Source of the DNA: Escherichia coli
Lineage (GTDB): Bacteria > Pseudomonadota > Gammaproteobacteria > Enterobacterales > Enterobacteriaceae
Length of the DNA: 64,000 nt
Strand: one strand, 5' to 3'
NCBI RefSeq assembly: GCF_013122565.1
Contig: NZ_CP053258.1
Part shown: positions 14,345 to 51,744 of the stretch, piece after piece
How the letters are laid out: each line of letters starts with the position of its first letter
Position numbering within the stretch: position 1 is the first letter of the stretch
The notes under the pieces: model-generated
Databases searched by the model: none
Told to the model about the DNA's origin: nothing
Seen by the model: the letters and a program-made list of their open reading frames with translations, nothing else
Position numbers and translations under genes: made by a program

Positions 14345-15463
14345 ATGCATAACCAGGCTCCAATTCAACGTAGAAAATCAACACGTATTTACGTTGGGAA
14401 TGTGCCGATTGGCGATGGTGCTCCCATCGCCGTACAGTCCATGACCAATACGCGTACGACAGACGTCGAAGCAACGGTCAATCAAATCAAGGCGCTGGAA
14501 CGCGTTGGCGCTGATATCGTCCGTGTATCCGTACCGACGATGGACGCGGCAGAAGCGTTCAAACTCATCAAACAGCAGGTTAACGTGCCGCTGGTGGCTG
14601 ACATCCACTTCGACTATCGCATTGCGCTGAAAGTAGCGGAATACGGCGTCGATTGTCTGCGTATTAACCCTGGCAATATCGGTAATGAAGAGCGTATTCG
14701 CATGGTGGTTGACTGTGCGCGCGATAAAAACATTCCAATCCGTATTGGCGTTAACGCCGGATCGCTGGAAAAAGATCTGCAAGAAAAGTATGGCGAACCG
14801 ACGCCGCAGGCGTTGCTGGAATCCGCCATGCGTCATGTTGATCATCTCGATCGCCTGAACTTCGATCAGTTCAAAGTTAGCGTGAAAGCGTCTGACGTCT
14901 TCCTCGCTGTTGAGTCTTATCGTTTGCTGGCAAAACAGATCGATCAGCCACTGCATCTGGGGATCACCGAAGCCGGTGGTGCGCGCAGTGGGGCAGTAAA
15001 ATCCGCCATTGGTTTAGGTCTGCTGCTGTCTGAAGGCATCGGCGACACGCTGCGCGTATCGCTGGCGGCCGATCCGGTCGAAGAGATCAAAGTCGGTTTC
15101 GATATTTTGAAATCGCTGCGTATCCGTTCGCGCGGGATCAACTTCATCGCCTGCCCAACCTGTTCGCGTCAGGAGTTTGATGTTATCGGTACGGTTAACG
15201 CGTTGGAGCAACGCCTGGAAGATATCATCACTCCGATGGACGTTTCGATAATCGGCTGCGTGGTGAATGGCCCAGGTGAGGCGCTGGTTTCTACACTCGG
15301 CGTCACCGGCGGCAACAAGAAAAGCGGCCTCTATGAAGATGGCGTGCGCAAAGACCGTCTGGACAACAACGATATGATCGACCAGCTGGAAGCACGCATT
15401 CGTGCGAAAGCCAGTCAGCTGGACGAAGCGCGTCGAATTGACGTTCAGCAGGTTGAAAAATAA
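14345..15463 (+). CDS. ispG: HMBPP synthase (MEP pathway)
   Basis: 372 aa. Confidence 0.95.
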
Positions 15464-15573
15464 TAACGTGATGGGAAGCGCCTCGCTTCCCGTGTATGAT
15501 TGAACCCGCATGGCTCCCGAAACATTGAGGGAAGCGTTGAGGGTTCATTTTTATATTCAGAAAGAGAATAAAC

Positions 15574-20280: not shown

Positions 20281-20342
20281 TTACTTATCTGGTTTCCCTT
20301 TTCTCATGGAGAGGGAAACCGAATAACACGCGAGGAGTATTG

Positions 20343-20558
20343 ATGGAATTCAATTGCCCAACCTGCCATAAACCTCTCGAACATCACGGCGAGACGGCTC
20401 ATTGCGTAACTTGCGACAAAGATTTCACCATCCAGGCACTTTGCCCTGACTGCCATCAGCCGCTACAGGTGTTAAAGGCTTGTGGCGCTGTGGACTATTT
20501 CTGCCAACATGGCCACGGATTAATTTCTAAAAAACGCGTTGAGTTTATTATTGCTTAA
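20343..20558 (+). CDS. yfgJ: Zinc-ribbon protein YfgJ
   Basis: 71 aa from ATG at 20343 with GAGGAG SD; CxxC...CxxC pairs. Confidence 0.85.
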   Translation: MEFNCPTCHKPLEHHGETAHCVTCDKDFTIQALCPDCHQPLQVLKACGAVDYFCQHGHGLISKKRVEFIIA

Positions 20559-20575
20559 TATCATCTGAATGTATG

Positions 20576-20610
20576 GTTTTATCATTTGTATTTAATATAT
20601 AAATGATAAA
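20576..20610. promoter_or_regulatory. Perfect 10-bp inverted repeat in AT-rich region upstream of sinH
   Basis: tttatcattt-N13-aaatgataaa. Confidence 0.3.
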
Positions 20611-20767
20611 GCCATCTCTTATTGGTTAAATCACTAGTACATGTGAGTGAAATCATTTTGATAAATTTTTAGGAATATATTTAGTTTTTCTGACGTGCCT
20701 TCCTGAATGTTCTGGCATAGAATATTAGAGCTTATTCATCAAATTATCATTGCCACAGGGAAAGTGC

Positions 20768-22942
20768 ATGCTGCGATGGAGTCGCTTTATAATGTTACTA
20801 TTTATCTCTGCTGCAACTCCTGCGGCAGAGATAAATAGTAAGCAAAATGAATCGTTACCTGATTTAGGCAGCCAGGCGGCTCAACAAGTAGAACAAACGG
20901 ATAAGGGTAAATCGTTAAAAGAGCGTGGAGCCGATTACGTCATCGATTCTGCTACGCAAGGGTTCGAAAACCTGACCCCCGAGGCGCTGGAATCTCAGGC
21001 CAGAAGCTATCTGCAAAGTCAAATCACCTCAACCGCGCAATCTTATATTGAAGAGACACTCTCTCCCTACGGTAAGGTCCGTTCGAATCTCTCTATTGGT
21101 CAAGGTGGCGATCTGGATGGTAGCTCCATCGATTATTTTGTTCCCTGGTATGATAATCAAACGACCGTTTATTTCAGTCAATTTTCTGCGCAACGAAAAG
21201 AGGACCGTACGATCGGGAATATCGGAATTGGAGCAAGACATAATTTCGATGAATGGCTTTTGGGTGGAAATATATTTTACGATTATGATTTCACCCGTGG
21301 GCATCGACGTTTAGGTTTGGGGACAGAGGCCTGGACCAATTATTTAAAATTTTCTGGCAACTATTATCATCCGCTCTCTGACTGGAAAGACTCTGAAGAT
21401 TTCGACTTTTATGAAGAGCGCCCTGCGCGCGGTTGGGATATTCGCGCTGAAGCCTGGTTACCTTCTTATCCGCAACTGGGGGGCAAAATTGTCTTCGAGC
21501 AATATTACGGTGATGAAGTCGCCCTTTTTGGTACGGATAATTTAGAGAAAGATCCCTATGCGGTGACGCTAGGACTGAATTATCAACCGGTACCGTTACT
21601 GACAGTTGGAACGGATTATAAAGCGGGGACAGGAGATAACAGCGATGTCAGCATTAATGCCACTCTTAATTATCAATTCGGCGTTCCGCTAAAAGATCAA
21701 CTCGACAGCAATAAAGTAAAAGCAGCCCACTCGTTGATGGGCAGTCGCCATGATTTTGTCGAGCGTAATAACTTTATCGTCCTGGAATATAAAGAGAAAG
21801 ACCCTCTGGATGTGACGTTGTGGCTGAAAGCGGATGCGACCAACGAGCACCCTGAGTGCGTCATTAAGGACACTCCAGAAGCGGCGATCGGGCTGGAAAA
21901 ATGTAAGTGGACCATTAACGCACTGATCAATCACCACTACAAAATTGTCGCTGCGTCATGGCAGGCGAAAAACAATGCCGCCCGCACGCTGGTGATGCCG
22001 GTCATCAAAGAAAATACCATCACTGAAGGCAACAACAACCACTGGAATCTGATACTGCCAGCCTGGCAGTACAGCTCTGACAAAGCCGAGCAGGAAAAAC
22101 TCAACACCTGGCGGGTACGGCTGGCGCTGGAAGATGAAAAGGGTAATCGGCAAAACTCCGGCCTGGTTGAGATCACCGTTCAGCAGGACCGTAAAATTGA
22201 GCTGACCGTCAATAACATTGCTGATGTGCCTGATGAGAATAACCACAGCCATGAAGCCAGCGCTCAGGCGGATGGCGTTGATGGTGTGGTCATGGACCTC
22301 GAGGTGACGGACAGTTTTGGCGATAACACGGACCGCAACGGTGATGCTCTGCCAGAAGATAATCTTGCACCGCAGCTCTACGACGCTCAGGACAAAAAAG
22401 TCACGCTAACCAATAAACCCTGCTCGACCGACAACCCCTGCGTGTTTATTGCCAAACAAGATAAAGAAAAGGGAACGGTAACCCTCTCCAGTACATTGCC
22501 AGGCGTTTTCCGCTGGAAAGCGAAAGCGGCTCCCTACGATGACAGTAACTATGTGGATGTCACGTTTATTGGATCTGATATCGGCGGGCTTAATGCTTTC
22601 ATTTACCGGCTTGGGGGAGCGAAGCCAGTCAATTTGATCGGCAATGATAAAGACCCCCTGCCGCTGGGCAACACGTACCGATTTGTGTTGTGGCGTGATG
22701 CCAACAAAGACGGCGTTTTTCAGCAGTCGGAAAAACTAACCGATGAAGAGATGACTCAGTACGACTACAAGTGGGAATTTACCGGCAAGAGCATCAATGG
22801 CGAAGTAGGTGCGCAGGCGAACACATCCAATGCAGACATTGTAATACCGGCGACCAACCGTGAAGCGGCGCAATCCTATGGTGCAAAAGTGGAAGATGGC
22901 TTGCAGGGTTACGGTTTACGCGTGCTGTACACCAAAAAATAA
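20768..22942 (+). CDS. sinH: Inverse autotransporter adhesin, intimin/invasin family (SinH-like)
   Basis: 724 aa from ATG at 20768 with AGGGA SD (track starts at 20750); signal peptide; N-terminal beta-barrel-like region; C-terminal passenger; gene absent at this site in K-12. Confidence 0.8.
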   Translation: MLRWSRFIMLLFISAATPAAEINSKQNESLPDLGSQAAQQVEQTDKGKSLKERGADYVIDSATQGFENLTPEALESQARSYLQSQITSTAQSYIEETLSPYGKVRSNLSIGQGGDLDGSSIDYFVPWYDNQTTVYFSQFSAQRKEDRTIGNIGIGARHNFDEWLLGGNIFYDYDFTRGHRRLGLGTEAWTNYLKFSGNYYHPLSDWKDSEDFDFYEERPARGWDIRAEAWLPSYPQLGGKIVFEQYYGDEVALFGTDNLEKDPYAVTLGLNYQPVPLLTVGTDYKAGTGDNSDVSINATLNYQFGVPLKDQLDSNKVKAAHSLMGSRHDFVERNNFIVLEYKEKDPLDVTLWLKADATNEHPECVIKDTPEAAIGLEKCKWTINALINHHYKIVAASWQAKNNAARTLVMPVIKENTITEGNNNHWNLILPAWQYSSDKAEQEKLNTWRVRLALEDEKGNRQNSGLVEITVQQDRKIELTVNNIADVPDENNHSHEASAQADGVDGVVMDLEVTDSFGDNTDRNGDALPEDNLAPQLYDAQDKKVTLTNKPCSTDNPCVFIAKQDKEKGTVTLSSTLPGVFRWKAKAAPYDDSNYVDVTFIGSDIGGLNAFIYRLGGAKPVNLIGNDKDPLPLGNTYRFVLWRDANKDGVFQQSEKLTDEEMTQYDYKWEFTGKSINGEVGAQANTSNADIVIPATNREAAQSYGAKVEDGLQGYGLRVLYTKK

Positions 22943-22996
22943 GATTGGCGTAAGGCCAGTCGGCCAGTCGCTGAAGATTCATTAAGGAGAGACTCA

Positions 22997-23974
22997 ATGA
23001 AGCAGGACAAAAGACGCGGTCTGACCCGGATCGCATTGGCGCTGGCACTGGCTGGTTACTGCGTGACGCCCCTGGCGCTGGCGGAAGACAGCGCGTGGAT
23101 CGACAGCGGCGAGACCAATATTTTCCAGGGGACTATTCCGTGGCTCTACCCCGTTGATGAAGATGAGGTAACTGGCGCGGGTCGGGTGACGTTAACCTCT
23201 GACTATAAAGGTACTCGTCCGTCGGGAAGTACATCCGACAAGCGTATGTACTCTGGCGACAAATTAACGCTCAGTTGGGTGATTGGCGATACTGAAGGCG
23301 ACGTCGATCTTGGTACGGCGGGTAAAGATGCAAAAACCATCGACACCATCCGCTGGATGAGCTACAAGGACGCCCAGGGTGGCGATCCGAAAGAGCTGGC
23401 AACAAAGGTGACCACTTACACCCTTACCGATGCCGACCGTGGTCGTTATATCGGTATTGAAATTACCCCAACCACCCAGACGGGTACGCCATACGTTGGG
23501 ACTGCGCTGCATCTTTATGATGTTTCGAATGCTAACGGCGGGGGAAGCGATAAAGATAACGTTGATCCAGGACCGGTAGTTAACCAGAACCTGAAAGTCG
23601 CCATCTTTGTTAAAGACACCTCGACTAACCTCATTAACGGTAGTACGCCAATCCAGTTGGGCAAAACGTACGTCGCCAAACTGTACTCGGATGAGAACAA
23701 AAACGGTCAGTATGACGCAGGTACTGACGTTGATGTTACCGCCAATTACGACTTCCGTTGGGTTCTTTCTGACACCAGCGATCAGCTCGGTACGGGGGGC
23801 GGCATTGTTAACTCAAGCTTCGATAATCAAAACCTGGTCATCCCTGCGACCAACGACGAAGCCAGAACCAACCTTAACGGCCCTGCTCGTGATGGCAAAG
23901 ATGCCCTTGCGATCCCGACCAACGGCGATGGGGTTCAGGGTTACAAACTGCAGATTATCTACAAACACAAATAA
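22997..23974 (+). CDS. sinI: Secreted protein homologous to the C-terminal domain of SinH (SinI-like)
   Basis: 325 aa; signal peptide; last ~80 aa align with the SinH C-terminus (...VIPATN.EA...GVQGY.L...Y.K). Confidence 0.75.
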   Translation: MKQDKRRGLTRIALALALAGYCVTPLALAEDSAWIDSGETNIFQGTIPWLYPVDEDEVTGAGRVTLTSDYKGTRPSGSTSDKRMYSGDKLTLSWVIGDTEGDVDLGTAGKDAKTIDTIRWMSYKDAQGGDPKELATKVTTYTLTDADRGRYIGIEITPTTQTGTPYVGTALHLYDVSNANGGGSDKDNVDPGPVVNQNLKVAIFVKDTSTNLINGSTPIQLGKTYVAKLYSDENKNGQYDAGTDVDVTANYDFRWVLSDTSDQLGTGGGIVNSSFDNQNLVIPATNDEARTNLNGPARDGKDALAIPTNGDGVQGYKLQIIYKHK

Positions 23975-24094
23975 CACTTGCTCAACAGCATTCCCGCAAG
24001 GGAATGCTGTTTCCGCATATTTTGCTTAATCCAGGATTAAGCAAAATATGTTGATGCGGTAACCGTTCGTTAAATAACTGGTGGAGTTCTTTTC

Positions 24095-27000
24095 ATGTCC
24101 CAGCCCCTGAAACCCGGCACTTTTTATGTTCTGCTTGTATTGCTGCTAACCGCAATGCTGCCGGGATGGTCATGGGCGGGCTCATCATGGCAAGACTCAT
24201 CCGATACGGCGGGTGAATTTAACGGTACCGTCCCCAATGCCGACAGCGCCAGTATGCCGGTTTATCAGGGCAGTATTTGGCTTGATCCTGCAAAGCCCCA
24301 TGATGTTTCGTTTTCCGCTAAACCCAATGAATTTAGCGTTAATCTGGATGTGTCGAAGCTGATTGTGACGAACCCGCAGGACCTGGAAGGCGATGTGTTT
24401 ACCAACCCGCGTTGGGAAAACCAAACGCCGCCAGTGGTCTCTTTAGTCTGGGCGGATGCGGCGACACCGGAAACCCCACTTAATCCTCAGCCAGTGGCTG
24501 GGCGTTCCTTTTGTGCGCAAGGGCTTGCCGGGCGTTCGCTGGTTGTCTGGCCGCAGCCAGACCCACAGCAGACCATGCCGCAGCTTTATCTACGCACCTC
24601 GACAGGTTATCCCTATGAAAGTCTTCTGACGCTTGTCGATAAGAAAGTGACGTTAAATATTGCACCGGCCCAGGGCGACTTAATTTCTGTCAGCGCGGCC
24701 GGTTATGACGACACCGTGGGCGGGGCGAAAACTACCGTTGGCGGCAATATCACGTTGACCGTTACCACCAAAGACTGCAGCGGTAACGTTGCCGGAAATA
24801 TTCCTTTTATTATCAAACGCAAAGATGCTGAAAACCGACAGGGCGCAGTCAACAATGCTTCGCCGGTTGTTCTGGACAAAACTGAACTGACCACTATCGC
24901 GACCGAATATCACAGCACCACGGATGCGAACGGCGTTGCGACGATCACGGTCACGCAACCCAACGGCCCTGGTGTAAAAACGCCGCTGGTAGCCAGTCTT
25001 TCAGGTATTGGTCAAACCAGTGAAACGGCAGTGATCTTTACCGTCCTTACCAGCCCGGATGTCCCTCAAGCCATGATGTGGGGCCATATGCCCGATACGC
25101 TAAAGGCCCATGATTATACGTTCAGTCGGCCAAAACTGGCGGCGGAGGTCGATAACGAAAATGGTACCGTTAACGATCACAATGAAACCTGGTCTACCTT
25201 CACCTGGAATGGTGCGGATAAACATTGCGACATTTTGCCTGGTATGCGCCAGTTTGGCGCGTTGGCAACGGTGGTGCCCACGACAGTTCAGGATCTCGTT
25301 GGTTGGCCGATACAGGGTAACTACTACTGGTCATCACTGGCGGGGATGACCGGACAGCACCATGCGGCGGATGTTTCCAACCGTAGCGAAGCGCAAAAAC
25401 CGGACGATACGACGTTTATTGTCAGTTGTGTCGATAAAGACGCTCCTGACGTTGAACCGAAACTGGTGCTAACACCGGGAAGCTATGATTCGACGTTAAA
25501 GGCGATGAAAGTAAAGGTGGGGGAAGAAGCGTCTCTGCGTGTAACCATCACCGATAATAAAAACAATAATCAACCGCTGGCGTATTACTACTTTTCGTTA
25601 CATCTGGATGACGGCATCAACCGTAAAAATCAATCGGATGCGGCATGGGAAGCGCATCCGGTGCAGATAGCGGGTGGCAGCAATGTCCATCAGGTTGACG
25701 CGCATACCTATGAAGGCATTACGGATGTGAACGGTCAGGCATCACTGACGCTAACGCAACCGGGCGGCGCGGGCGTGAAAACACACATTACTGCGAAAAT
25801 GCGCAGCGACTTCACCACGTCGGATGAGAAAGACGTGATTTTTACAGTCATTACCAGCCCCGATACTGACAAAGCCCGGATGTGGGGGCATATGCAGGGT
25901 ATTATTGATTCTAATAATATCTTTAAACGTCCACGGCTGGCAGATGAAACCGACCATGAACTCGATTCAGTGCGAGAGAACAACGAAGACTGGGCGCTGT
26001 TCGACCAAAATGGCAGCATGCAGGCTGAATGTGGTGTAGGTCATATTCCGAGCCAGAATCAATTACAGGGTCTGTTCACGGCGCATCCTGGCAATGCGAT
26101 TGGCACCGAATATGGCTGGCCGACGGCGCAAAAAGATTACCTTAGTGCGGTACAACAAGAGCCACACTCCTCCGTGAACCTGGGCACAGGTAACATCGAC
26201 ACCTATTCAGGCTTTAAGCAGAACTATCTCTCCTGTTCCGGTAATGAGATGGTTGCTCAGATTACCGCAACGACCGATCATGACGTTTCCGTGGGTAGCA
26301 GGGCGCAGGCTAAAGTTGGAGAAACCGTCACCATGACGGTGCATACCTTCAATGCACTGAATAATGCGCCCGTGCCGTTTACCGCCTTCAGCATCACAAA
26401 GGAGATGGGTAAAAACCGTCAGGGGCAGACTACCGGATATACCGATCCGACGAGTGGCGCAATTGAGATGAATGGCAAGCTCTACGGAACATCCCAGGCC
26501 TCGGTGGTTTATTCCGGGACTACGGATGCACAGGGCTACGCAACGGTGGAGATTGAACAACCGCAGGGCGTGGGCTTAGCGACGCCGCTAAATATTGCGC
26601 CTGTGAACTCCTACATTCCCAATACAGTAAATTACAACGTGATTTTCACCACGCCTACCAGCCCGGATGCGGTGGCGGCGCAGATGTGGGGGCATATGGA
26701 TGAGACTATTACAGTCGATTCTTTAACCTTCACCCGGCCTAAACTGGCAGCGGAAGTTTCCAGCCCGGATGCGACATTGACAGAAAATAATGAAGTCTGG
26801 GCGCGTGTGAGTCAGGCGAATACATCCAGTATAAGTAAAGGTGGCTGCGGAGCGAATATGCTGCCGCGTCGATCCCAGCTTAGCGCGCTCTATGATGCCA
26901 ATAACGGTAATGCTGTACAGACAGTACACGGCTGGCCAACTCTGCGTGAGCCTTACTGGAGTAGTTCCCCTGCGGATAAAGTTCCTCATTTTTACACCAT

Positions 27001-30000
27001 TGCTCTCAATGATGGCGCACAGGCTATTGGCGGTAGCAACGCGGTTTATGTCAGCTGCCTGACGACGGCAAATAATCCTGCAAACGCTATTACTTTAGAG
27101 GTGGTGGATCAGGCGCAATGGAACGCGACGGCGAAAGCGGCGAAGCTGAAAAAAGGCGAAACGCTCCAGGTTAAGGTAACGGTGAAGGATGCTCAGGGCA
27201 ATGCACTGTCGGATATGCCATTCACCCTGAAACGTGGCGATGGTTATACTCGCTCAAATGAAAAACATATTGCTGGCAGCGGGGATGCGCTGGTTGCGCC
27301 AGTCATCGTCAACGGTGGCCTGACGGATGAGACTTCACTGAATGACACCGCGACAGCATACGCTACCATGACCGGCAGCGACGGCACTAAAATACTTACC
27401 ATAACCCGCCCTGAGACGCATGGCACCAAAACGGCGCTGATCGCTGCGCTGTATTCTGATGCAACGAAAAACGCCAGCCTCGACACCATTTTTACCGTTG
27501 CGACCAGCCCGGACAGCGATAAGGCGAAAATGTGGGGGCACATGGCGGAAACGGTGACGGCTACTGACGGCACGGTATTTAAACGCCCGCGCTTACTGAA
27601 AGAGTGGTCAACTCAGTCCTCTCTTACTGAAGATAATGAGGTCTGGGGGTTGTATAACATCAGCGATGCAAAATCTACCAGCAATGGCTGTGGCGCTAAT
27701 TATGTTCCTGCGCAGGTTGGGCTGGAGTCACTGTTTGACAATAACCGCAGCAACGCGATGAAAACCGTACAAGGTTGGCCGGTAGATACCCATTATCTTT
27801 CAAATACCTCAAGTACCGACAGTTTATCGCAGCATAATTACAAAGCCGTGGATCTGGGCAATGGTACCAGTACCTCAATATCCGCTTCCGAGAGGAAGTT
27901 GTTAACCTGCCAGACGACCGCGGTGTTACAGGCAAGCCAGATTCTGCTGGACGCAGCGGATCCAACCACCTTCGACAGCACAAATAATGTTGTCAAAGTT
28001 AAAAAAGGCGAAGCGGCAGTGGTGCGTGTAACCACGAAGGATTCGCAGGGGAATCCTGTAGGAAATACCGCATTTACCCTCAAACGAAACCACAGCGTGA
28101 ACAGGGCTAATGCGTCGAATACCACGTCGATTGCTTCACTGGTGGTAACGGATGCATGGGGAAATACTCAGGACAGTTTTCTTTCAACGTCCCTGGTCAT
28201 ATATGGCGTAACGGGGGCCGATGGCACCACCACCTTTACACTGAAACAAGACCAGTCTACCGGCTTAAAAACGGAACTCACGGCAGCGCTGGACTCCTCC
28301 AGCAGCATTACATCGTCGCTTCCCGTCGTCTTTACGGTGCTTACCAGCCCGGATTCGCCAAAAGCCAAATTCTGGGGGCATATGGCTGAAACGGCGACAG
28401 GCGATGACGGTCTCATTTATAAAAGACCATTGCTGAGAGACGAGATTAGCGCCTCTAGCGGTATCAGCACCCTGACAGAAGAGGGGGAAAACTGGTCTGC
28501 ATTCTGGGCGAACAATGCTAATGATACTTCGATAAGTGGTTGTGGCGCAGAGTATGTTCCCTCTGCCGATGAACTTAAGGCCATTTATGCGCACCAGGGG
28601 GGGAGCGCATTGCATGGTGCTATTGGCTGGCCAGTTTCGAAGCCCTATATCTCGAATACCGTCGCAGATATGTTCACTCAACCCTTTAAGTTTGATGTCG
28701 TTTCGCTGAAGACAGGAGATGAAACACAGATTTCATCAGGTAGTGGTGTAGGGCCTCTGAGTTGCCGGACCACACCTGTCGCCGTTGCCAGTCAGATCAT
28801 TGTTGAGGCGAACGATGCGGCGCAATTTGTCAAAGTTGACGATACCTTGAGTGCACTGAAAGTGAAAAAAGGTGAAGACGCGGTGATTCGCGTGGTGACC
28901 AAGGATGCGCAGGGGAATACCGTGCCCAATGTTCCCTTTATTCTCAAGCGCGAGGGCTCGAGAAACCGTCAAAATGTCGAGATGATAAACAAATCGATTA
29001 CGGTGATTAACGCGGCAGGGACTTCTACGAATGTGCTTAGTTCGTCAACACTGCTTTATGGGGTAACGGGCGCGGACGGGACTACCACGTTTACAGTAAA
29101 ACAAGATGATTCTATGGGTCTGATGACCAATATGTACGCTCAGTTGTATCAGTCGACGATAGAATCCAACAAATTACCGGTGATGTTTACCGTTATAACC
29201 AGCCCGGATACGCCTCTGGCAAACTACTGGGGGCATATGTCTGAAACCTTCACGACAAGGTCGGGGGTTGTCTTCAAGCGGCCAATGCTTAGTGCCGAGC
29301 ATCCAGCGGGGCAGTCAACCGTGGATAATAATGAAACCTGGCTTTCCTTGAATACAGCAGCAAAAAATGATGTCAGCAAATCAGGCTGTGACGAACCTTA
29401 TCAACCGTTATTAAGCGAACTTCAGGAGTTGTACAGTGAACATCCTAATGGTGCGATAGGAACCGATTTAGGCCTGCCGCTGACGAAAACCTGGTGGGCT
29501 TACGATAAAGTGGCCAACTCGAATGCCTGGTACGATCAGTCTGTTAATTTGTCGAATGGGTCAAGCGCCAGGGCGTCGTCAACCACCGTGGCGTTTGTGC
29601 CCTGTCTGGTAAACCCTCATCCAGTGGCTGCTTCTATTGAGATAACCTCCACGGCACTGGATGCGGAGAAAACGGCCAGTAACGATGGTCGCCCCAGCGC
29701 AACCGCACCGAAAGGTACGGCGATCCGGATGACGGTGATTGTGCGGGATAGCGCAGGAAATCCATTGCCCGGCGCCAACTTTAACCTCGTACGCGGGACG
29801 GCATTGGATCGTGCAAAATACAGTGTCGATAGTTCAGCTGATGATCTTACTCTCGTGCCTGTCACGCCTGCTGGCGTAAATATGACTCTCACGAGTAATA
29901 CATCAAAAGCACTGTTGACGACAGGCAGTGATGGTAAAGTGACCTTTGATGTGACGCAAAACGGGACTTATGGGCTGGCAACCCCGCTCACTGCAACATT

Positions 30001-32149
30001 GCTACGCGACACTTCAATAAGCGCCACGATGGATGTCATTTTCACGGTGATAACCAGTCCCGACTCACCGAAAGCAAAATACTGGGGTCATATGCCCGAC
30101 ACGTTTACCAGCAGTGCGGGGGTGACCTTTAAACGGCCGCTACTGGCAGCCGAAGCGACCTCCGGGTCCTCGGTTGGCAGTAATAATGAGTCGTGGTCAT
30201 ACATTGGTATTAACGAAAGAGCTACGTCGGATTGCTCACTGGAGTATCAGCCGCGTCTTAATGAGTTACAGGGGTTATATAACGATCATCCTGGCGGGGC
30301 CATACAGACGGATCTGGGGTTACCTGTAGCTGCCGGAAGTGGAAACTGGTGGGCTTATGAAATGAGTATGCCTAACCCCAGCGGGTCGGTGTGGTTTTAC
30401 GGCATCATTAATTTGAAAACGGGACAATCGTCGACCACGTCGAGTGGATTCGCTTTAATGCTCTGCCTGACGCAGCCGCATACGGTACCGGCAAGCCTTA
30501 CACTGTCATCAACCGCCTACGATGAAGGCAGAACCGCCAGCAATGGTGGCACACCTACGTCATCTGTGAAAAAAGGTGAGACGCTTCCCTTAGTGGTGAC
30601 GATCAAAGATGCCAATGGTAACCCCGTTGGCGGCGAAGGCGTTACGCTCAAGCGCGCGCAGGCGAAAAGCCGTTCAGGTATCTCTGTCTCCCCCACTACC
30701 GCCGATGATCTTATTTTAAATGAAGTCACACCGGAATCAGCCAGCTTTTCCTTCGCCGCGGATTTGGCATCATGGAGCGGCATCACCGGCAGTGACGGCA
30801 CTGTAACGTTCAATATTACACAAAAAAATACAATCGGCCTGGTAACGCCGTTTACAGCCTCATTGGGGCGAAATCCGCAGGTCACCGCCAACCAGGACCT
30901 GATGTTCACGGTGGTAACCAGCCCGGATTCGCCGAAGGCAAACTACTGGGGGCATATGCCAGCAACCTTGACGGCAGTGAATGGTGCGGTATTTGAACGC
31001 CCGAAATTGTGGAGTGAACTGCCATCGACCTCCGGCGTCGGCAAGATCAATAACAATAATGAGGACTGGCCGTACTATTCACCGACAAAAAAATCTGATG
31101 AGAGTGTGACCCCTTGCGAAGTGGCAAGACAGCCTCTGCTTAGTGATTTAAATTCGCTGTCTGCGCGTTATCCGAATAACTCCTTCGCTGCTGAAACGGG
31201 CTGGTCTGTGTATTACACCTGGTGGGCAGAGGATAAATCCGCCGCGGGTAAAGATCAGTCGGTGGATTTGAGAGATGGCACGCTGTATACGTATGCATCA
31301 GGAGCATTTCAACCTTGCCTGGTTAACGCGCGTTCAACTGTTTCTAGCGTCACACTTACCTCAACGGCGTTTGACGCTACCACTCAGGCGGCGAAAGTGA
31401 AAAAAGGCGAAGCCATGCCGGTGACGGTCACGGTGAAAGACAGCGCCGGGAAAACGGTGCCGAATGTGGCTTTTACCCTGAAACGCGGTGATGCTGCGCC
31501 AAGAAACCCTGGTATGGCCTTGTACGGTGATGTGGATGCGATGGATGACCTGACCGTTCAACCGACATCGGGAGCGGCGGTGACGTGGTCTGAAAGTGGC
31601 AACTTGCTACAGGGGACCACTGGCTCTGACGGCACCGCGACGTTTATGATTAAACAGGATCATTCGCCGGGCTATAAAACCCCTTTGACGGTCACGTTGG
31701 ACAATAACACCAGCATCACTGCGACAATGGACGCTATTTTCACCGTCGTGACCAGCCCGAATGTCTCAAGCGCCTATTACTGGGGGCACATGGCAGATAC
31801 GACCACGGTGAACGGTAAAACACTGCATCGCCCGTTGTTGGCATCGGAGCTACCTGCGAATGCTTCTTCCCCAGCCACGCCTGACGTAAACAATGAAGCC
31901 TGGGCTATGGGGCATATGGTGGATTCAAGGAATTGGGATATCGAGGCGCAGTGTGGCAGCTTGACCAACGCGCCAAACGATGACGACTTAATGGGTCTGT
32001 ATACTAACTTTAGTTCGCTGGGTTGGCCTGCATCCCCGAGTTTTCCTTACTTATCTTCTCAGAGATGCGGCGTGTTTGAGAACAGTGGACAACAGGACTG
32101 CGCTATTGCGCCAGGCAACACAAAAGGTTTTGTGACTTGTACCCAATAA
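24095..32149 (+). CDS. ratA: Giant repetitive surface/secreted protein (RatA-like)
   Basis: 2684 aa; signal peptide; nine ~275-aa repeats each with F-T-V-x-T-S-P-D...W-G-H-M and two conserved cysteines. Confidence 0.85.
24990..31830 (+). repeat. Nine imperfect tandem coding repeats of ~810-860 bp inside ratA
   Basis: ccagcccggat...tgggggcatatg recurs near 25045, 25855, 26660, 27505, 28345, 29205, 30055, 30915, 31755. Confidence 0.85.
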
Positions 32150-32157
32150 GATGACCA

Positions 32158-33636
<1,479 letters not shown>

Positions 33637-38899: not shown

Positions 38900-41143
38900 A
38901 TGAAACTGAATGCAACTTATATAAAAATACGTGATAAATGGTGGGGGCTTCCGCTGTTCCTGCCTTCTTTAATCTTGCCCATTTTCGCCCACATTAATAC
39001 TTTCGCGCATATTTCTTCCGGTGAGGTTTTTCTCTTTTATCTGCCTCTGGCACTGATGATCAGCATGATGATGTTTTTCAGCTGGGCGGCATTGCCAGGG
39101 ATCGCCTTAGGGATTTTTGTCCGCAAATATGCAGAGCTTGGTTTTTACGAAACGCTCTCATTAACGGCTAATTTTATTATCATTATCATTCTCTGTTGGG
39201 GTGGTTACAGGGTCTTTACTCCCCGGCGTAACAACGTTTCACATGGTGATACCCGTTTAATTTCCCAGCGTATATTCTGGCAGATTGTGTTTCCTGCAAC
39301 GCTGTTTCTGATACTTTTTCAGTTTGCTGCGTTTGTAGGATTACTGGCGAGCAGAGAAAATCTGGTCGGTGTCATGCCTTTTAACCTCGGGACTTTAATC
39401 AATTATCAGGCCTTACTGGTGGGTAATCTGATCGGTGTCCCGCTGTGTTACTTCATCATTCGGGTAGTGCGAAATCCATTTTATTTACGTAGCTATTATT
39501 CGCAATTAAAACAGCAGGTTGATGTCAAAGTCACCAAAAAAGAGTTCGCACTCTGGCTACTGGCATTAGGTGCTTTATTGTTGCTGTTATGCATGCCGTT
39601 AAATGAAAAAAGCACAATTTTTAGCACCAATTATACCTTGTCATTATTGCTGCCCCTGATGATGTGGGGAGCGATGCGCTATGGTTATAAGCTGATTTCA
39701 CTGCTCTGGGCGGTCGTGTTGATGATCAGCATCCACAGCTATCAAAATTACATTCCCATTTATCCTGGCTATACCACGCAGCTGACCATAACCTCCTCCA
39801 GTTATCTGGTATTCTCTTTTATTGTCAATTATATGGCTGTATTGGCAACCCGTCAGAGAGCGGTAGTCAGACGCATTCAGCGGCTTGCGTATGTGGACCC
39901 GGTGGTTCATCTGCCAAATGTTCGCGCACTGAATCGCGCGTTGCGTGATGCCCCCTGGTCTGCGCTTTGTTATTTACGCATCCCTGGCATGGAAATGCTG
40001 GTTAAGAACTATGGCATCATGCTGCGGATTCAATACAAGCAAAAACTTTCTCACTGGCTGTCACCCTTACTGGAACCGGGTGAAGATGTTTATCAGCTTT
40101 CGGGTAACGATCTCGCGCTGCGACTGAATACAGAATCGCACCAGGAGCGCATTACCGCACTGGATAGCCATCTCAAGCAATTTCGTTTCTTTTGGGATGG
40201 CATGCCGATGCAACCGCAGATTGGCGTCAGTTACTGCTATGTGCGCTCGCCAGTGAATCATATCTACCTGCTGCTGGGAGAGCTAAATACGGTCGCCGAA
40301 CTTTCCATCGTGACCAACGCCCCGGAAAATATGCAGCGTCGCGGGGCAATGTATTTGCAACGCGAATTGAAAGATAAAGTCGCGATGATGAATCGACTAC
40401 AGCAGGCGCTGGAACACAACCATTTTTTCCTGATGGCCCAGCCGATTACCGGTATGCGTGGTGATGTTTACCATGAAATTCTTCTGCGCATGAAAGGTGA
40501 GAATGATGAACTGATCAGCCCCGATAGCTTCTTGCCGGTCGCGCACGAATTTGGTTTATCGTCGAGTATCGACATGTGGGTCATTGAGCATACGCTGCAA
40601 TTTATGGCTGAAAACAGAGCGAAGATGCCCGCTCACCGTTTTGCTATTAATCTGTCTCCAACCTCGGTATGTCAGGCTCGTTTTCCTGTTGAAGTCAGTC
40701 AGTTGCTGGCTAAATATCAGATTGAAGCGTGGCAACTTATTTTTGAAGTCACCGAAAGTAATGCTCTGACCAATGTTAAGCAGGCGCAAATCACCTTGCA
40801 GCATCTTCAGGAATTAGGCTGCCAGATTGCGATTGATGATTTCGGCACCGGCTACGCCAGCTATGCGCGGCTTAAAAATGTGAATGCCGATCTGCTTAAA
40901 ATTGACGGCAGTTTTATCCGCAATATTGTGTCAAATAGTCTGGATTATCAGATAGTGGCATCGATTTGCCACCTGGCGCGAATGAAGAAAATGCTGGTAG
41001 TGGCAGAGTACGTTGAAAACGAAGAGATCCGCGAGGCGGTGCTCTCTTTGGGGATCGATTATATGCAGGGTTATCTTATTGGTAAGCCGCAACCGTTAAT
41101 TGATACGCTGAATGAAATCGAACCCATTCGCGAAAGTGCCTGA
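38900..41143 (+). CDS. pdeF: Cyclic-di-GMP phosphodiesterase PdeF (MASE1, degenerate GGDEF, EAL)
   Basis: 747 aa; multi-TM N-terminus; EAL-domain C-terminus. Confidence 0.9.
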   Translation: MKLNATYIKIRDKWWGLPLFLPSLILPIFAHINTFAHISSGEVFLFYLPLALMISMMMFFSWAALPGIALGIFVRKYAELGFYETLSLTANFIIIIILCWGGYRVFTPRRNNVSHGDTRLISQRIFWQIVFPATLFLILFQFAAFVGLLASRENLVGVMPFNLGTLINYQALLVGNLIGVPLCYFIIRVVRNPFYLRSYYSQLKQQVDVKVTKKEFALWLLALGALLLLLCMPLNEKSTIFSTNYTLSLLLPLMMWGAMRYGYKLISLLWAVVLMISIHSYQNYIPIYPGYTTQLTITSSSYLVFSFIVNYMAVLATRQRAVVRRIQRLAYVDPVVHLPNVRALNRALRDAPWSALCYLRIPGMEMLVKNYGIMLRIQYKQKLSHWLSPLLEPGEDVYQLSGNDLALRLNTESHQERITALDSHLKQFRFFWDGMPMQPQIGVSYCYVRSPVNHIYLLLGELNTVAELSIVTNAPENMQRRGAMYLQRELKDKVAMMNRLQQALEHNHFFLMAQPITGMRGDVYHEILLRMKGENDELISPDSFLPVAHEFGLSSSIDMWVIEHTLQFMAENRAKMPAHRFAINLSPTSVCQARFPVEVSQLLAKYQIEAWQLIFEVTESNALTNVKQAQITLQHLQELGCQIAIDDFGTGYASYARLKNVNADLLKIDGSFIRNIVSNSLDYQIVASICHLARMKKMLVVAEYVENEEIREAVLSLGIDYMQGYLIGKPQPLIDTLNEIEPIRESA

Positions 41144-44965: not shown

Positions 44966-45603
44966 TTACTCGTCGGCAGCGTAGCCCTGCGGCGGCAGAC
45001 ATTGACCATCCAGCCACGCGGCGTTTTCGTGCATTTTCAGACGACCATCGGCAAACCAGCTAATCACCAGCGGATAAATAGCGTGTTCCTGGGTTTGCAC
45101 GCGGGCGGTGATGTCATCTTCCGTATCACCAGCAAATACCGGGACTTTCGCCTGTAAAATAACCGGGCCACCGTCCAGTTCATCGGTGACGAAATGCACC
45201 GATGTACCGTGCTCTTCATCGCCATTTTCCAGCGCCTGACGATGGGTGTGTAATCCGGGATATTTCGGCAGCAGAGAAGGGTGAATGTTCAGTAAACGCC
45301 CGGCATAGTGGGAGACAAACGCCGGGCTGAGAATGCGCATAAAACCAGCCAGCACGACCACATCGGGTGCGTACATGTCGATTTCATGAATCAACTCCCG
45401 GTCATAGGCTTCACGACTGTCAAACGCGCTGGCGATGAGCGTATGCGTTGCAATACCCGCCTGGCGGGCGCGTTCAAGGCCGAACGCGTCGGCCTTATTG
45501 CTGAAAACTGCCCGTACGGTGCCTTTAATTTTGTTGGTTTTACAGGCGTCAATAATTGCCTGTAAATTACTTCCGTTGCCGGAAATAAGCACCACAATAT
45601 TCA

Positions 45604-45604
<1 letters not shown>
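44966..45604 (-). CDS. purN: Phosphoribosylglycinamide formyltransferase
   Basis: 212 aa. Confidence 0.96.
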
Positions 45605-46659
<1,055 letters not shown>

Positions 46660-46704
46660 TTACTTGCGGTAGAAAAATAAAATTCGGCGCAATTCTAACA
46701 GGGA

Positions 46705-46720
46705 AAGCAAACGTTTGCGA
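46705..46720. promoter_or_regulatory. PurR operator (PUR box) upstream of purMN
   Basis: cgcaaacgtttgct on the - strand, matching the palindromic PurR box consensus. Confidence 0.7.
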
Positions 46721-46915
46721 GACTGCTTTACACAACCTTTTTGCACGTCTTTTCCCCAGGCGCGCGGCGAAAGAAGACTTGTGCCAGGGCAAAGGTTAGT
46801 TTTCGGATGGAATAATCTTCTTTCATAACCATTTGAATATAAAATAACTTTATCTCAAACCGTTATCATTTTGACTAAAGTCAACGAAAATAATATTGCC
46901 GCCTTGAAGAAAGGA

Positions 46916-46940
46916 GGTATAATCCGTCGATTTTTTTTGT
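46916..46940 (+). promoter_or_regulatory. upp promoter -10 (TATAAT) and initially transcribed T8 tract
   Basis: ggTATAATccgtcGATTTTTTTTGtgg; matches the recalled UTP-sensitive reiterative-transcription arrangement of upp. Confidence 0.6.
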
Positions 46941-46965
46941 GGCTGCCCCTCAAAGGAGAAAGAGT

Positions 46966-47592
46966 ATGAAGATCGTGGAAGTCAAACACCCACTCGTCAA
47001 ACACAAGCTGGGACTGATGCGTGAGCAAGATATCAGCACCAAGCGCTTTCGCGAACTCGCTTCCGAAGTGGGTAGCCTGCTGACTTACGAAGCGACCGCC
47101 GACCTCGAAACGGAAAAAGTAACTATCGAAGGCTGGAACGGCCCGGTAGAAATCGACCAGATCAAAGGTAAGAAAATTACCGTTGTGCCAATTCTGCGTG
47201 CGGGTCTTGGTATGATGGACGGTGTGCTGGAAAACGTTCCGAGCGCGCGCATCAGCGTTGTCGGTATGTACCGTAATGAAGAAACGCTGGAGCCGGTACC
47301 GTACTTCCAGAAACTGGTTTCTAACATCGATGAGCGTATGGCGCTGATCGTTGACCCAATGCTGGCAACCGGTGGTTCCGTTATCGCGACCATCGACCTG
47401 CTGAAAAAAGCGGGCTGCAGCAGCATCAAAGTTCTGGTGCTGGTAGCTGCGCCAGAAGGTATCGCTGCGCTGGAAAAAGCGCACCCGGACGTCGAACTGT
47501 ATACCGCATCGATTGATCAGGGACTGAACGAGCACGGATACATTATTCCGGGCCTCGGCGATGCCGGTGACAAAATCTTTGGTACGAAATAA
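46966..47592 (+). CDS. upp: Uracil phosphoribosyltransferase
   Basis: 208 aa from ATG at 46966 with AAGGAG SD. Confidence 0.96.
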
Positions 47593-47608
47593 AGAATAAA
47601 AATAATTA

Positions 47609-47638
47609 AAGCCGACTTTAAGAGTCGGCTTTTTTTTG
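47609..47638 (+). terminator. Hairpin plus T-run between upp and uraA (terminator/attenuator)
   Basis: aagccgactttaagagtcggctttttttt. Confidence 0.6.
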
Positions 47639-47677: not shown

Positions 47678-48967
47678 ATGACGCGCCGTGCTATCGGGGT
47701 GAGTGAAAGACCGCCACTTTTACAGACAATCCCGCTTAGTTTGCAACATTTGTTCGCCATGTTTGGTGCAACCGTCCTGGTGCCCGTCTTATTTCATATT
47801 AACCCGGCGACTGTACTGTTATTTAACGGTATTGGAACGCTGCTGTATCTCTTCATCTGTAAAGGGAAAATTCCGGCTTATCTTGGTTCCAGCTTTGCCT
47901 TTATTTCACCGGTATTGTTACTGTTGCCGTTAGGGTATGAAGTCGCGCTGGGCGGCTTTATTATGTGCGGCGTGCTGTTCTGCCTGGTTTCTTTTATCGT
48001 GAAGAAAGCGGGGACCGGCTGGCTGGACGTGCTGTTTCCACCTGCGGCAATGGGCGCAATCGTTGCCGTCATCGGTCTGGAGCTGGCGGGCGTAGCTGCC
48101 GGTATGGCGGGTTTACTCCCGGCTGAAGGGCAAACGCCAGACTCCAAAACCATCATCATCTCTATTACCACCCTGGCGGTCACGGTTTTAGGTTCCGTGC
48201 TGTTTCGTGGTTTCCTGGCAATTATCCCGATTTTAATTGGCGTGCTGGTGGGGTACGCGCTCTCTTTCGCAATGGGAATTGTCGATACCACGCCGATTAT
48301 TAATGCTCACTGGTTTGCGCTGCCAACCCTCTATACGCCGCGCTTCGAGTGGTTTGCCATTCTGACTATTCTGCCAGCGGCGTTAGTGGTTATTGCCGAA
48401 CACGTAGGGCACCTGGTAGTAACGGCTAATATCGTCAAAAAAGATCTGCTGCGCGATCCAGGTCTGCACCGTTCGATGTTTGCTAACGGCCTGTCGACCG
48501 TGATCTCCGGCTTCTTTGGCTCTACGCCAAATACCACTTACGGAGAAAACATTGGCGTGATGGCGATCACCCGTGTTTACAGTACCTGGGTTATCGGCGG
48601 GGCGGCGATTTTCGCTATCCTGCTTTCCTGCGTCGGTAAACTGGCTGCTGCTATCCAGATGATCCCATTGCCGGTGATGGGTGGTGTTTCGCTGCTGCTT
48701 TACGGTGTCATCGGTGCTTCTGGTATTCGTGTGTTGATCGAATCGAAAGTGGATTACAACAAAGCACAGAACCTGATCCTGACTTCCGTGATTTTGATCA
48801 TCGGCGTCAGTGGCGCGAAGGTAAACATCGGCGCGGCGGAGTTGAAAGGTATGGCGCTGGCGACCATCGTCGGTATCGGCTTAAGTTTGATCTTCAAACT
48901 GATCAGTGTGCTGCGCCCTGAAGAAGTGGTGCTGGACGCAGAAGACGCGGATATAACAGACAAATAA
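47678..48967 (+). CDS. uraA: Uracil:proton symporter
   Basis: 429 aa from ATG at 47678 with AGAGGA SD. Confidence 0.95.
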
Positions 48968-50280: not shown

Positions 50281-51744
50281 TTACATCTTGGTATAAGGCT
50301 TAAAGCGTTCCTGCAGCTGGCGCAACTGGTCGATGCGAGCATCGTAACGTGCTTGTTGCAGGCTGCCTAATTTCACCTGCGAACTGGCGCTACTCAACAA
50401 GGAAATAGCCTGATCGAGTCGCCCGGCGAGCGCATAACCTTCTGCTCGCGCAGCCAGTTCCTGATCGCGGTTATTTAGCGCGGCTTCCGCCTGTGCCAGT
50501 AAATCCCAGCCGTTGCTGTCATCTTTATTGTTAAAAGTGTAGCGATTGAGAATATTGGCCGCTTCTTGTGGTTGACCGCCTTGTAGATAAGCGTTCGCCA
50601 GGTTGAGCTGCAACACAGGATTGGTGCGCAAATCACGGGCATTTTTCAGGCGATTGATTGCCTCATTGGCTTTGTTTTGCCCAAGATCGATATCGGTAGC
50701 CAGATCGAGATACCATGCGTTGCCAGGTTCTGCCGCCAGTAACGGTTGCAGCGTTTTACGCGCCTCGTCGTATTTATTGGCTTCCATCGCCTGTAAAGCA
50801 CGACCATATTGCGCCGCTCGTTGCTGACGAACGTTTCCTTTCGCCCATTCATCCAGCAAATCACTGGTGAGCTGGTTACGTCCGGAATTATACATCCCCA
50901 GTGTGCGCGCTTTCGCCAGATAGAAATCTTCCGACGACTGCACCACCATCGGGCGCATCTGATTAGCACGGTTGCGGGCATCTGCCAGACGACTTTCCGG
51001 CAAAGGGTGAGTCAATAAAATTTCCGGCGGGCGCGAGGAGTAACGCGCCTGATCGAGTAATTTTTCGAGGAAGGTTGGCATCGCCTGCGGATCGAATCCT
51101 GAGCGTTGCAGCACCTGAATACCAATGCGGTCCGCTTCCTGTTCATTTTGCTGGGTGAAACTGATCATCCCCTGGCGCGTTCCCGCCAGTGTACCGGTCA
51201 GCGCCGCCATCCCTGCCTGCGGACTGGCCATCGCCAGTAAAATAGAACCTAACGCGCCGACCCAGGTCAGCGGCGCGCTGCGCTGCTGATCTTCCATCGC
51301 TCGCGCCAGGTGACGTTGGGTGACGTGGGAGATTTCGTGCGCCATAACTGAAGCCAGTTGACTTTCGTTATCGGAATAACGGAACAGGGCAGAGTGCAGC
51401 ACCACGTTGCCGCCAAAGAAAGCAAAGGCGTTAATTTCGTCGTTGTTGATCAGAAAGAAATGAAACGGTGTCTTAACCGAATTGGCATGCGAAACCAGAC
51501 GCATCCCCAGCGAATTAATATATTGCGTTAACAGCGGGTCATTAATTAACGGCGCGCTGCCGCGTAGCTGGCGGACATAATAGTCGCCCATCTGCATTTC
51601 CTGACCAATGGAAAGCGTGCTTCCTGCGGAGGTTCCCATATCCGGCAAGGTGTCTGCGCTGTCGGCAAACGCCGGGGCTACCTGACCAATGGTCATAGCA
51701 GCAATGAGGGTTGCAACCAGGTTTTTTTTCAACTGCCTGAACAT
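50281..51744 (-). CDS. bepA: Periplasmic M48 metalloprotease/chaperone BepA (TPR)
   Basis: 487 aa; signal peptide; [10 protein letters not shown] zinc motif. Confidence 0.93.

Follow-up and report, generated by a model that had tools for sequence, protein, structure and literature searches.

A T8 tract at the upp-uraA start region of an Escherichia coli strain is identical to the K-12 allele and lies in a promoter arrangement conserved across the Enterobacterales

Results

The window analysed here, a 64,000-nucleotide stretch of E. coli DNA (contig NZ_CP053258.1), carries the genes upp and uraA in tandem on the plus strand. The first of these, upp (46966–47592), encodes a uracil phosphoribosyltransferase of 208 residues, with full-length matches to the NCBIfam equivalogs NF001097 and TIGR01091 (E ~1e-90), and is followed by uraA (47678–48967), the second gene of the operon, which encodes a uracil permease of 429 residues (NCBIfam equivalog NF007995, E = 2.4e-245). 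On the opposite strand, and divergent from upp, lie purM (45604–46641) and purN (44966–45604), giving the same gene order as in E. coli K-12, namely hda-uraA-upp with purM-purN diverging.

Immediately upstream of upp the sequence reads ...GGAGG TATAAT CCGTC G A TTTTTTTT G TGGCTGCCCCTCAAAGGAGAAAGAGT ATG..., with all elements of the promoter and leader on the plus strand. The sole sigma-70-like promoter match in 46600–47050 is TTGCCG-16 nt-TATAAT, ending at 46923, in which the -35-like hexamer TTGCCG (46896–46901; consensus scan, 10/12 matches) is the putative -35 element, and TATAAT (46918–46923), evident both in the sequence and in the promoter scan, is the -10 hexamer of the upp-uraA promoter, as it is in K-12. 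Next to the -10 hexamer is a discriminator of five bases, CCGTC (46924–46928), which places two purines, G (46929) and A (46930), at positions 6 and 7 after the hexamer, and therefore fits the published names G6 and A7; their role as transcription starts is taken from the K-12 literature. The T8 tract itself (46931–46938), which is A8 on the template strand and a candidate slippery template for reiterative U addition, begins directly after the A, and is closed by the leading G (46939) of the remaining 5′ leader (46939–46965). This leader contains the Shine-Dalgarno sequence AAGGAG (46953–46958), and separates the tract from the upp ATG (46966) by 27 nt. The initial annotation, made from the letters of the sequence and their open reading frames, had placed a T8 tract at the upp start within the range 46916–46940. 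This is confirmed by the reading of TATAAT-CCGTC-G-A-T8-G at 46918–46939 upstream of an intact upp, the annotated range extending beyond the motif by two bases on its 5′ side and by one on its 3′ side.

The upp-uraA intergenic region, from the upp stop codon (47592) to the uraA ATG (47678), contains a hairpin, AAAGCCGACT-TTAAG-AGTCGGCTTT with a T-tail (47608–47637, plus strand), which is assigned from a terminator-like consensus match and scored as terminator-like on both strands. Located inside a described operon, this hairpin may be a partial terminator, or a processing or stability element. In the upstream region of purM, a perfect 12-nt palindrome, GCAAACGTTTGC, is found at 46707–46718, 66–77 nt before the purM ATG, and resembles the PurR operator of purMN. 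The palindrome is the sole match in the window, with 35 of 100 shuffles matching at one mismatch or fewer, and is not statistically striking alone; CAAACGTTTGCGAG also recurs in the upstream sequences of Rosenbergiella and Brenneria.

Alignment of the 349-nt purM-upp intergenic region with that of K-12 MG1655 reveals zero differences from the -35 hexamer through the upp ATG. The nearest SNP, at 46891, lies just upstream of the -35 hexamer and probably has no effect, with a few more found further upstream in the intergenic region. The T8 tract is common to the window and MG1655, which settles the comparison of tract length with K-12 proposed in the initial annotation. The initially transcribed region of upp-uraA has been given as 5′-GATTTTTTTTG, citing Tu & Turnbough 1997 (PMC7039003), and this published region, together with a sequence shared in full with the K-12 allele from the -35 hexamer as far as the ATG, supports the further suggestion of that annotation, that the site matches the arrangement through which UTP controls upp-uraA.

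Conservation of the arrangement was assessed in one genome per species, with the conserved N-terminus of upp (ATGAARATYGTNGARGTNAARCAYCC) as the query, yielding at least 120 upp loci, 118 of which have at least 100 nt of upstream sequence. The motif was defined as TATAAT-N5-N-N-T(5 or more), no more than 150 nt from the upp ATG, with the 5-nt spacer thus being set by the pattern. Among the loci listed, 96 carry the motif within 150 nt, and a further locus, from Brenneria roseae, carries it at 183 nt, giving 97 of 118. Essentially every free-living member of the Enterobacterales among these loci carries the motif, with the motif-negative loci belonging to the Pasteurellaceae, Orbaceae, Alkalimonas, two insect/louse endosymbionts, and Thorsellia.

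Within the 96 motif-bearing species listed, 95 have G at position 6 and 93 have A at position 7, and the spacer is C/G-rich in all 96 (mostly CCCGC, CCGGC, CTCGC, and CCGTC), its length of 5 nt not being an independent result. The tract is T7 in 44 of these species, T8 in 38, T9 in 12, T10 in one, and T6 in one, and is followed by G in 77 and by A in 17. The 20 nt downstream of the tract show almost no consensus across the same 96 species, and most of the upstream sequence is likewise not conserved. The conservation of TATAAT-N5-GA-T(7–9) across the Enterobacterales argues for an order-wide mechanism.

Departures from the purine pair are seen in Escherichia albertii NBRC 107761 (L007:1862–1882), which reads TATAAT-CCGTC-T-A-T8 with T in place of G6, in two Photorhabdus loci that read G-G-T7, with G at position 7, and in Ca. 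Pantoea persica, where G is followed directly by T8. These loci represent natural tests of the need for two distinct purine starts.

Of 5,426 complete E. coli genomes, 5,424 contain a match to the 349-nt intergenic region. Alleles were counted with an 88-nt query (46893–46980) and versions of it edited in tract length, for which the band at ≥99% identity holds exact matches only. T8 is present in 4,736 of the 5,424 genomes (87%), identical over the 88 nt, with T7 found in 439, T9 in 19, T6 in four, and T10 in none by the edited query; the other 226 genomes differ elsewhere in the 88-nt segment. In total, 8.5% of the genomes carry T6, T7, or T9, some of which may be assembly errors of long-read homopolymers. 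Carriers of T7 include the type strain ATCC 11775 as well as series of almost identical clinical genomes that come from different laboratories, and this allele is found on at least three flanking haplotypes. Seven of the 19 T9 records are O157, and the O157:H7 strains FRIK944 and NE1127 are examples of T9 carriers.

Among individual genomes, O157:H7 strain PV15-279 is 100% identical to the window in the purM-upp intergenic region, compared with 98.0–99.2% outside it. This divergence, together with the ~12-kb island and the missing IS element described below, places the window in an E. coli lineage other than O157:H7. In strain MEW (H30), the intergenic match is interrupted at position 209 of the query and falls at two sites of the record, pointing to an insertion ahead of the upp promoter.

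Variation of this kind is what would be expected if the tract were a mutable DNA homopolymer, with slipped-strand changes between T7, T8, and T9 heritably retuning or switching upp-uraA between lineages in the style of a contingency locus. Tract length does vary, from T6 to T9 among complete E. coli genomes and from T6 to T10 among the species listed, and the several haplotypes that carry T7 also favour such a reading. However, T8 is held by 87% of the genomes, the variants differ little in length and all remain compatible with reiterative transcription, and some of the T7 and T9 calls may be assembly errors of the type noted above. Furthermore, the tract lies in the transcribed leader, outside any open reading frame and outside the -35/-10 spacer, such that a change in its length gives no on/off switch. 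A contingency locus would in any case modulate the established mechanism and not replace it, and we consider this explanation highly improbable.

With control by UTP at the transcription start retained as the preferred reading, a further proposal is that slippage has genuinely and repeatedly produced the natural T7 and T9 alleles, and that these mutations alter, in a heritable manner, the UTP set-point or the dynamic range of upp-uraA expression. We regard this as doubtful. Were it true, lineages would differ in uracil salvage and in sensitivity to 5-fluorouracil, and the tract would be an evolutionary tuning knob besides a UTP sensor. The census of tract lengths identifies natural T7 and T9 strains that could be used for an in vivo test of length dependence.

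The U-run could also be thought to act in the RNA, pairing with the purine-rich Shine-Dalgarno sequence or the early codons and so controlling the translation or stability of upp mRNA, and the minimum-free-energy fold of the leader does pair GAUUUUU with the first codons. This fold is weak, however (-9 kcal/mol, z = +0.60), with 142 of 200 shuffles at least as good, and the leader beyond the tract is not conserved across the species listed. In addition, five Pectobacterium and Brenneria loci tolerate GC-rich inserts of ~70–150 nt between the tract and the upp ATG. Each insert contains one or two hairpin-forming repeats ending in a T run, and extends the leader to ~100–180 nt. The promoter-tract unit is intact despite these inserts, which argues that the unit works at the transcription start and not via the ribosome-binding site. 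Action of the U-run in the RNA is exceedingly unlikely. The inserts may themselves represent REP-like insertions or an additional attenuator.

Occlusion of the ribosome-binding site by a leader RNA structure was considered and rejected, the fold (z = +0.60) being no more stable than those of shuffled controls. A leader attenuator or intrinsic terminator of the pyrBI type was also rejected, with no terminator-like site found in 46600–47050 and a fold no better than shuffles. The pyrBI operon also has a separate leader attenuator, and the upp leader, being without a terminator-like site, is unlike it in this respect. A scan of the whole window at the Rfam gathering thresholds returned no family at 46.6–47.0 kb, and no tRNAs were found.

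Bare T8 occurs three times in the window, compared with 5.7 occurrences expected from shuffles. As it is not enriched, only the arrangement with TATAAT counts as evidence, and here the window holds a single TATAAT-N(4–8)-T8, whereas 100 dinucleotide-preserving shuffles yield none. The specificity of the motif is similarly high across species, with 99 occurrences in 0.99 Mb of the listed loci, both strands included, of which 97 lie upstream of upp and two elsewhere. That the T8 is an incidental AT-rich stretch near a promoter, with no regulatory role of its own, would suit the unexceptional frequency of bare T8, but only one T8 of the window is combined with TATAAT, and this arrangement persists upstream of upp in the great majority of species listed while its flanks diverge, is nearly absent elsewhere in ~1 Mb, and is identical to a K-12 site described experimentally as a regulatory element, so that this explanation is effectively refuted by conservation and merits almost no credence.

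Several other features of the window were recorded. The second T8 (47630–47637) forms the tail of the upp-uraA intergenic hairpin, and the third (51722–51729) is a minus-strand A8 run located 16–23 nt into the bepA open reading frame (50281–51744, minus strand), a coding homopolymer whose length can be slippage-prone. Three tandem copies of the sRNA ryfA are present on the minus strand at 949–2613 (949–1253, 1627–1931, and 2309–2613), with two matches to the IS128 sRNA (1385–1595 and 2067–2277) interleaved between them, and sroE is found at 15463–15554. By blastn comparison, a segment of ~12.1 kb between der and xseA (20284–32380) is absent from O157:H7 PV15-279. This island encodes an inverse autotransporter of 730 residues (Pfam IAT_beta), a protein of 325 residues without a Pfam match, and a protein of 2,684 residues with nine InvE_AD and nine BIg21 repeats, and resembles the SinH/SinI/RatA adhesin island, which occupies the same site in Salmonella (CS54) and some E. 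coli. Between pdeF and ppx, the window (39853–41110, compared with L126:13158–14467) is without an IS3-family insertion that O157:H7 PV15-279 has.

Discussion

The site at 46918–46939 very probably comprises the upp-uraA promoter of E. coli and its initially transcribed region, which serve a pyrimidine-salvage operon and at which RNA polymerase senses UTP directly. Its features are those of the upp/codBA class of promoters. A sigma-70 -10 hexamer is followed by a short discriminator and by adjacent purines at positions ~6 and 7, and a long non-template T run begins directly after the A start. The downstream genes are those of pyrimidine salvage, as judged from the full-length equivalog matches of upp and uraA, orthologous promoters have kept the arrangement despite divergence of its flanks, and the site is both orthologous and identical in sequence to an experimentally characterised K-12 allele. 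UTP dependence, the use of two starts, and the non-productive ladders would carry over to this strain by analogy, being taken from the literature on that identical allele. A search of the literature found no independent start-site dataset for upp.

In their work of 1997, Tu and Turnbough are said to have named the two starts G6 and A7. High UTP reportedly directs initiation to A7, with AUUUU(n) products being released, and low UTP reportedly directs it to G6, the transcripts from which are said not to slip. Applied to the present site, transcription would start at either G (46929, position 6) or A (46930, position 7). Abundant UTP would favour the A7 start, since UTP is the second nucleotide incorporated there. 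The resulting short AUU... transcript would then slip back on the eight template A's, U would be added repetitively, and the AUUUU(n) products would be released before reaching upp. When UTP is scarce, the G6 start would be favoured, and GAUUUUUUUUG... transcripts would be made without slippage and extended into upp and uraA, leading to more uracil uptake and salvage. Such control needs no regulatory protein, because RNA polymerase itself would sense UTP.

This proposed mechanism draws on several published accounts. The promoters of pyrBI, codBA, and upp-uraA are described as producing long reiterative RNAs, with no return to canonical synthesis after slipping (PMC7039003). Reiterative initiation at upp is described as non-productive, and as triggered indirectly via start-site switching under excess UTP, as at codBA (PMC12709180), with upp named among the first UTP-dependent reiterative cases (PMC6245113). 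More generally, start sites normally range over positions 6–9 after the -10 hexamer, position 7 being the modal one, and their choice is influenced by the concentration of the initiating NTP, citing Tu & Turnbough (PMC5730371). Reiterative initiation requires that the template be homopolymeric over at least 3 nt, either at the start or just downstream of it, and proceeds by slipping of the RNA in a very short hybrid (PMC8812562).

The initial annotation had also named tract length as the key parameter, a claim that holds in part. Cheng and colleagues (2001) reportedly found that regulation requires a long tract, and to this extent the emphasis on length stands. It does not stand as a claim about length above all else, with G6/A7 and the 5-nt spacing conserved at least as strictly, the spacing being fixed by the search pattern. 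Judged from sequence comparison across species, three parameters are conserved together: tract length, the G6/A7 dinucleotide, and the spacing between this dinucleotide and the -10 hexamer.

The T-tract element of upp is already known, and the allele described here is the reference form and adds no new biology. The annotation-free reading of the sequence was nevertheless correct, and the strain carries the reference T8 allele of a site that is a textbook example of control dispensing with any regulatory protein, where the UTP pool would be read by RNA polymerase via start-site choice and transcript slippage.

Of the systems known to control nucleotide metabolism in this way, the upp-uraA promoter of K-12 (Tu & Turnbough 1997; Cheng, Dylla & Turnbough 2001) is identical to the element described here from the -35 hexamer to the ATG, with the same downstream genes and the same context divergent from purMN, and with differences only upstream of the -35 hexamer. 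It is at this K-12 promoter that the coupling of UTP-sensitive start choice (G6 or A7) to UTP-dependent reiterative transcription was reportedly worked out. The codBA promoter (Qi & Turnbough 1995) resembles that of upp in combining UTP-sensitive start switching with non-productive slippage on a T run ahead of a pyrimidine-salvage operon, however it belongs to a different locus outside the window, has a shorter T6 tract (5′-ATTTTTTG), and uses other alternative start positions. The pyrBI promoter (Liu, Heath & Turnbough 1994) likewise exhibits UTP-dependent, non-productive reiterative U addition at its start, though in contrast to upp it contains a T3 run only (AATTTG), at which slippage is a direct response to high UTP and involves no switch of start site. 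The pyrG gene of Bacillus subtilis (Meng, Turnbough & Switzer 2004) also senses a nucleotide through reiterative transcription at its start site. Whilst slippage at pyrG is productive, with the added G residues forming an antiterminator at low CTP that turns the gene on, slippage at upp is a dead end.
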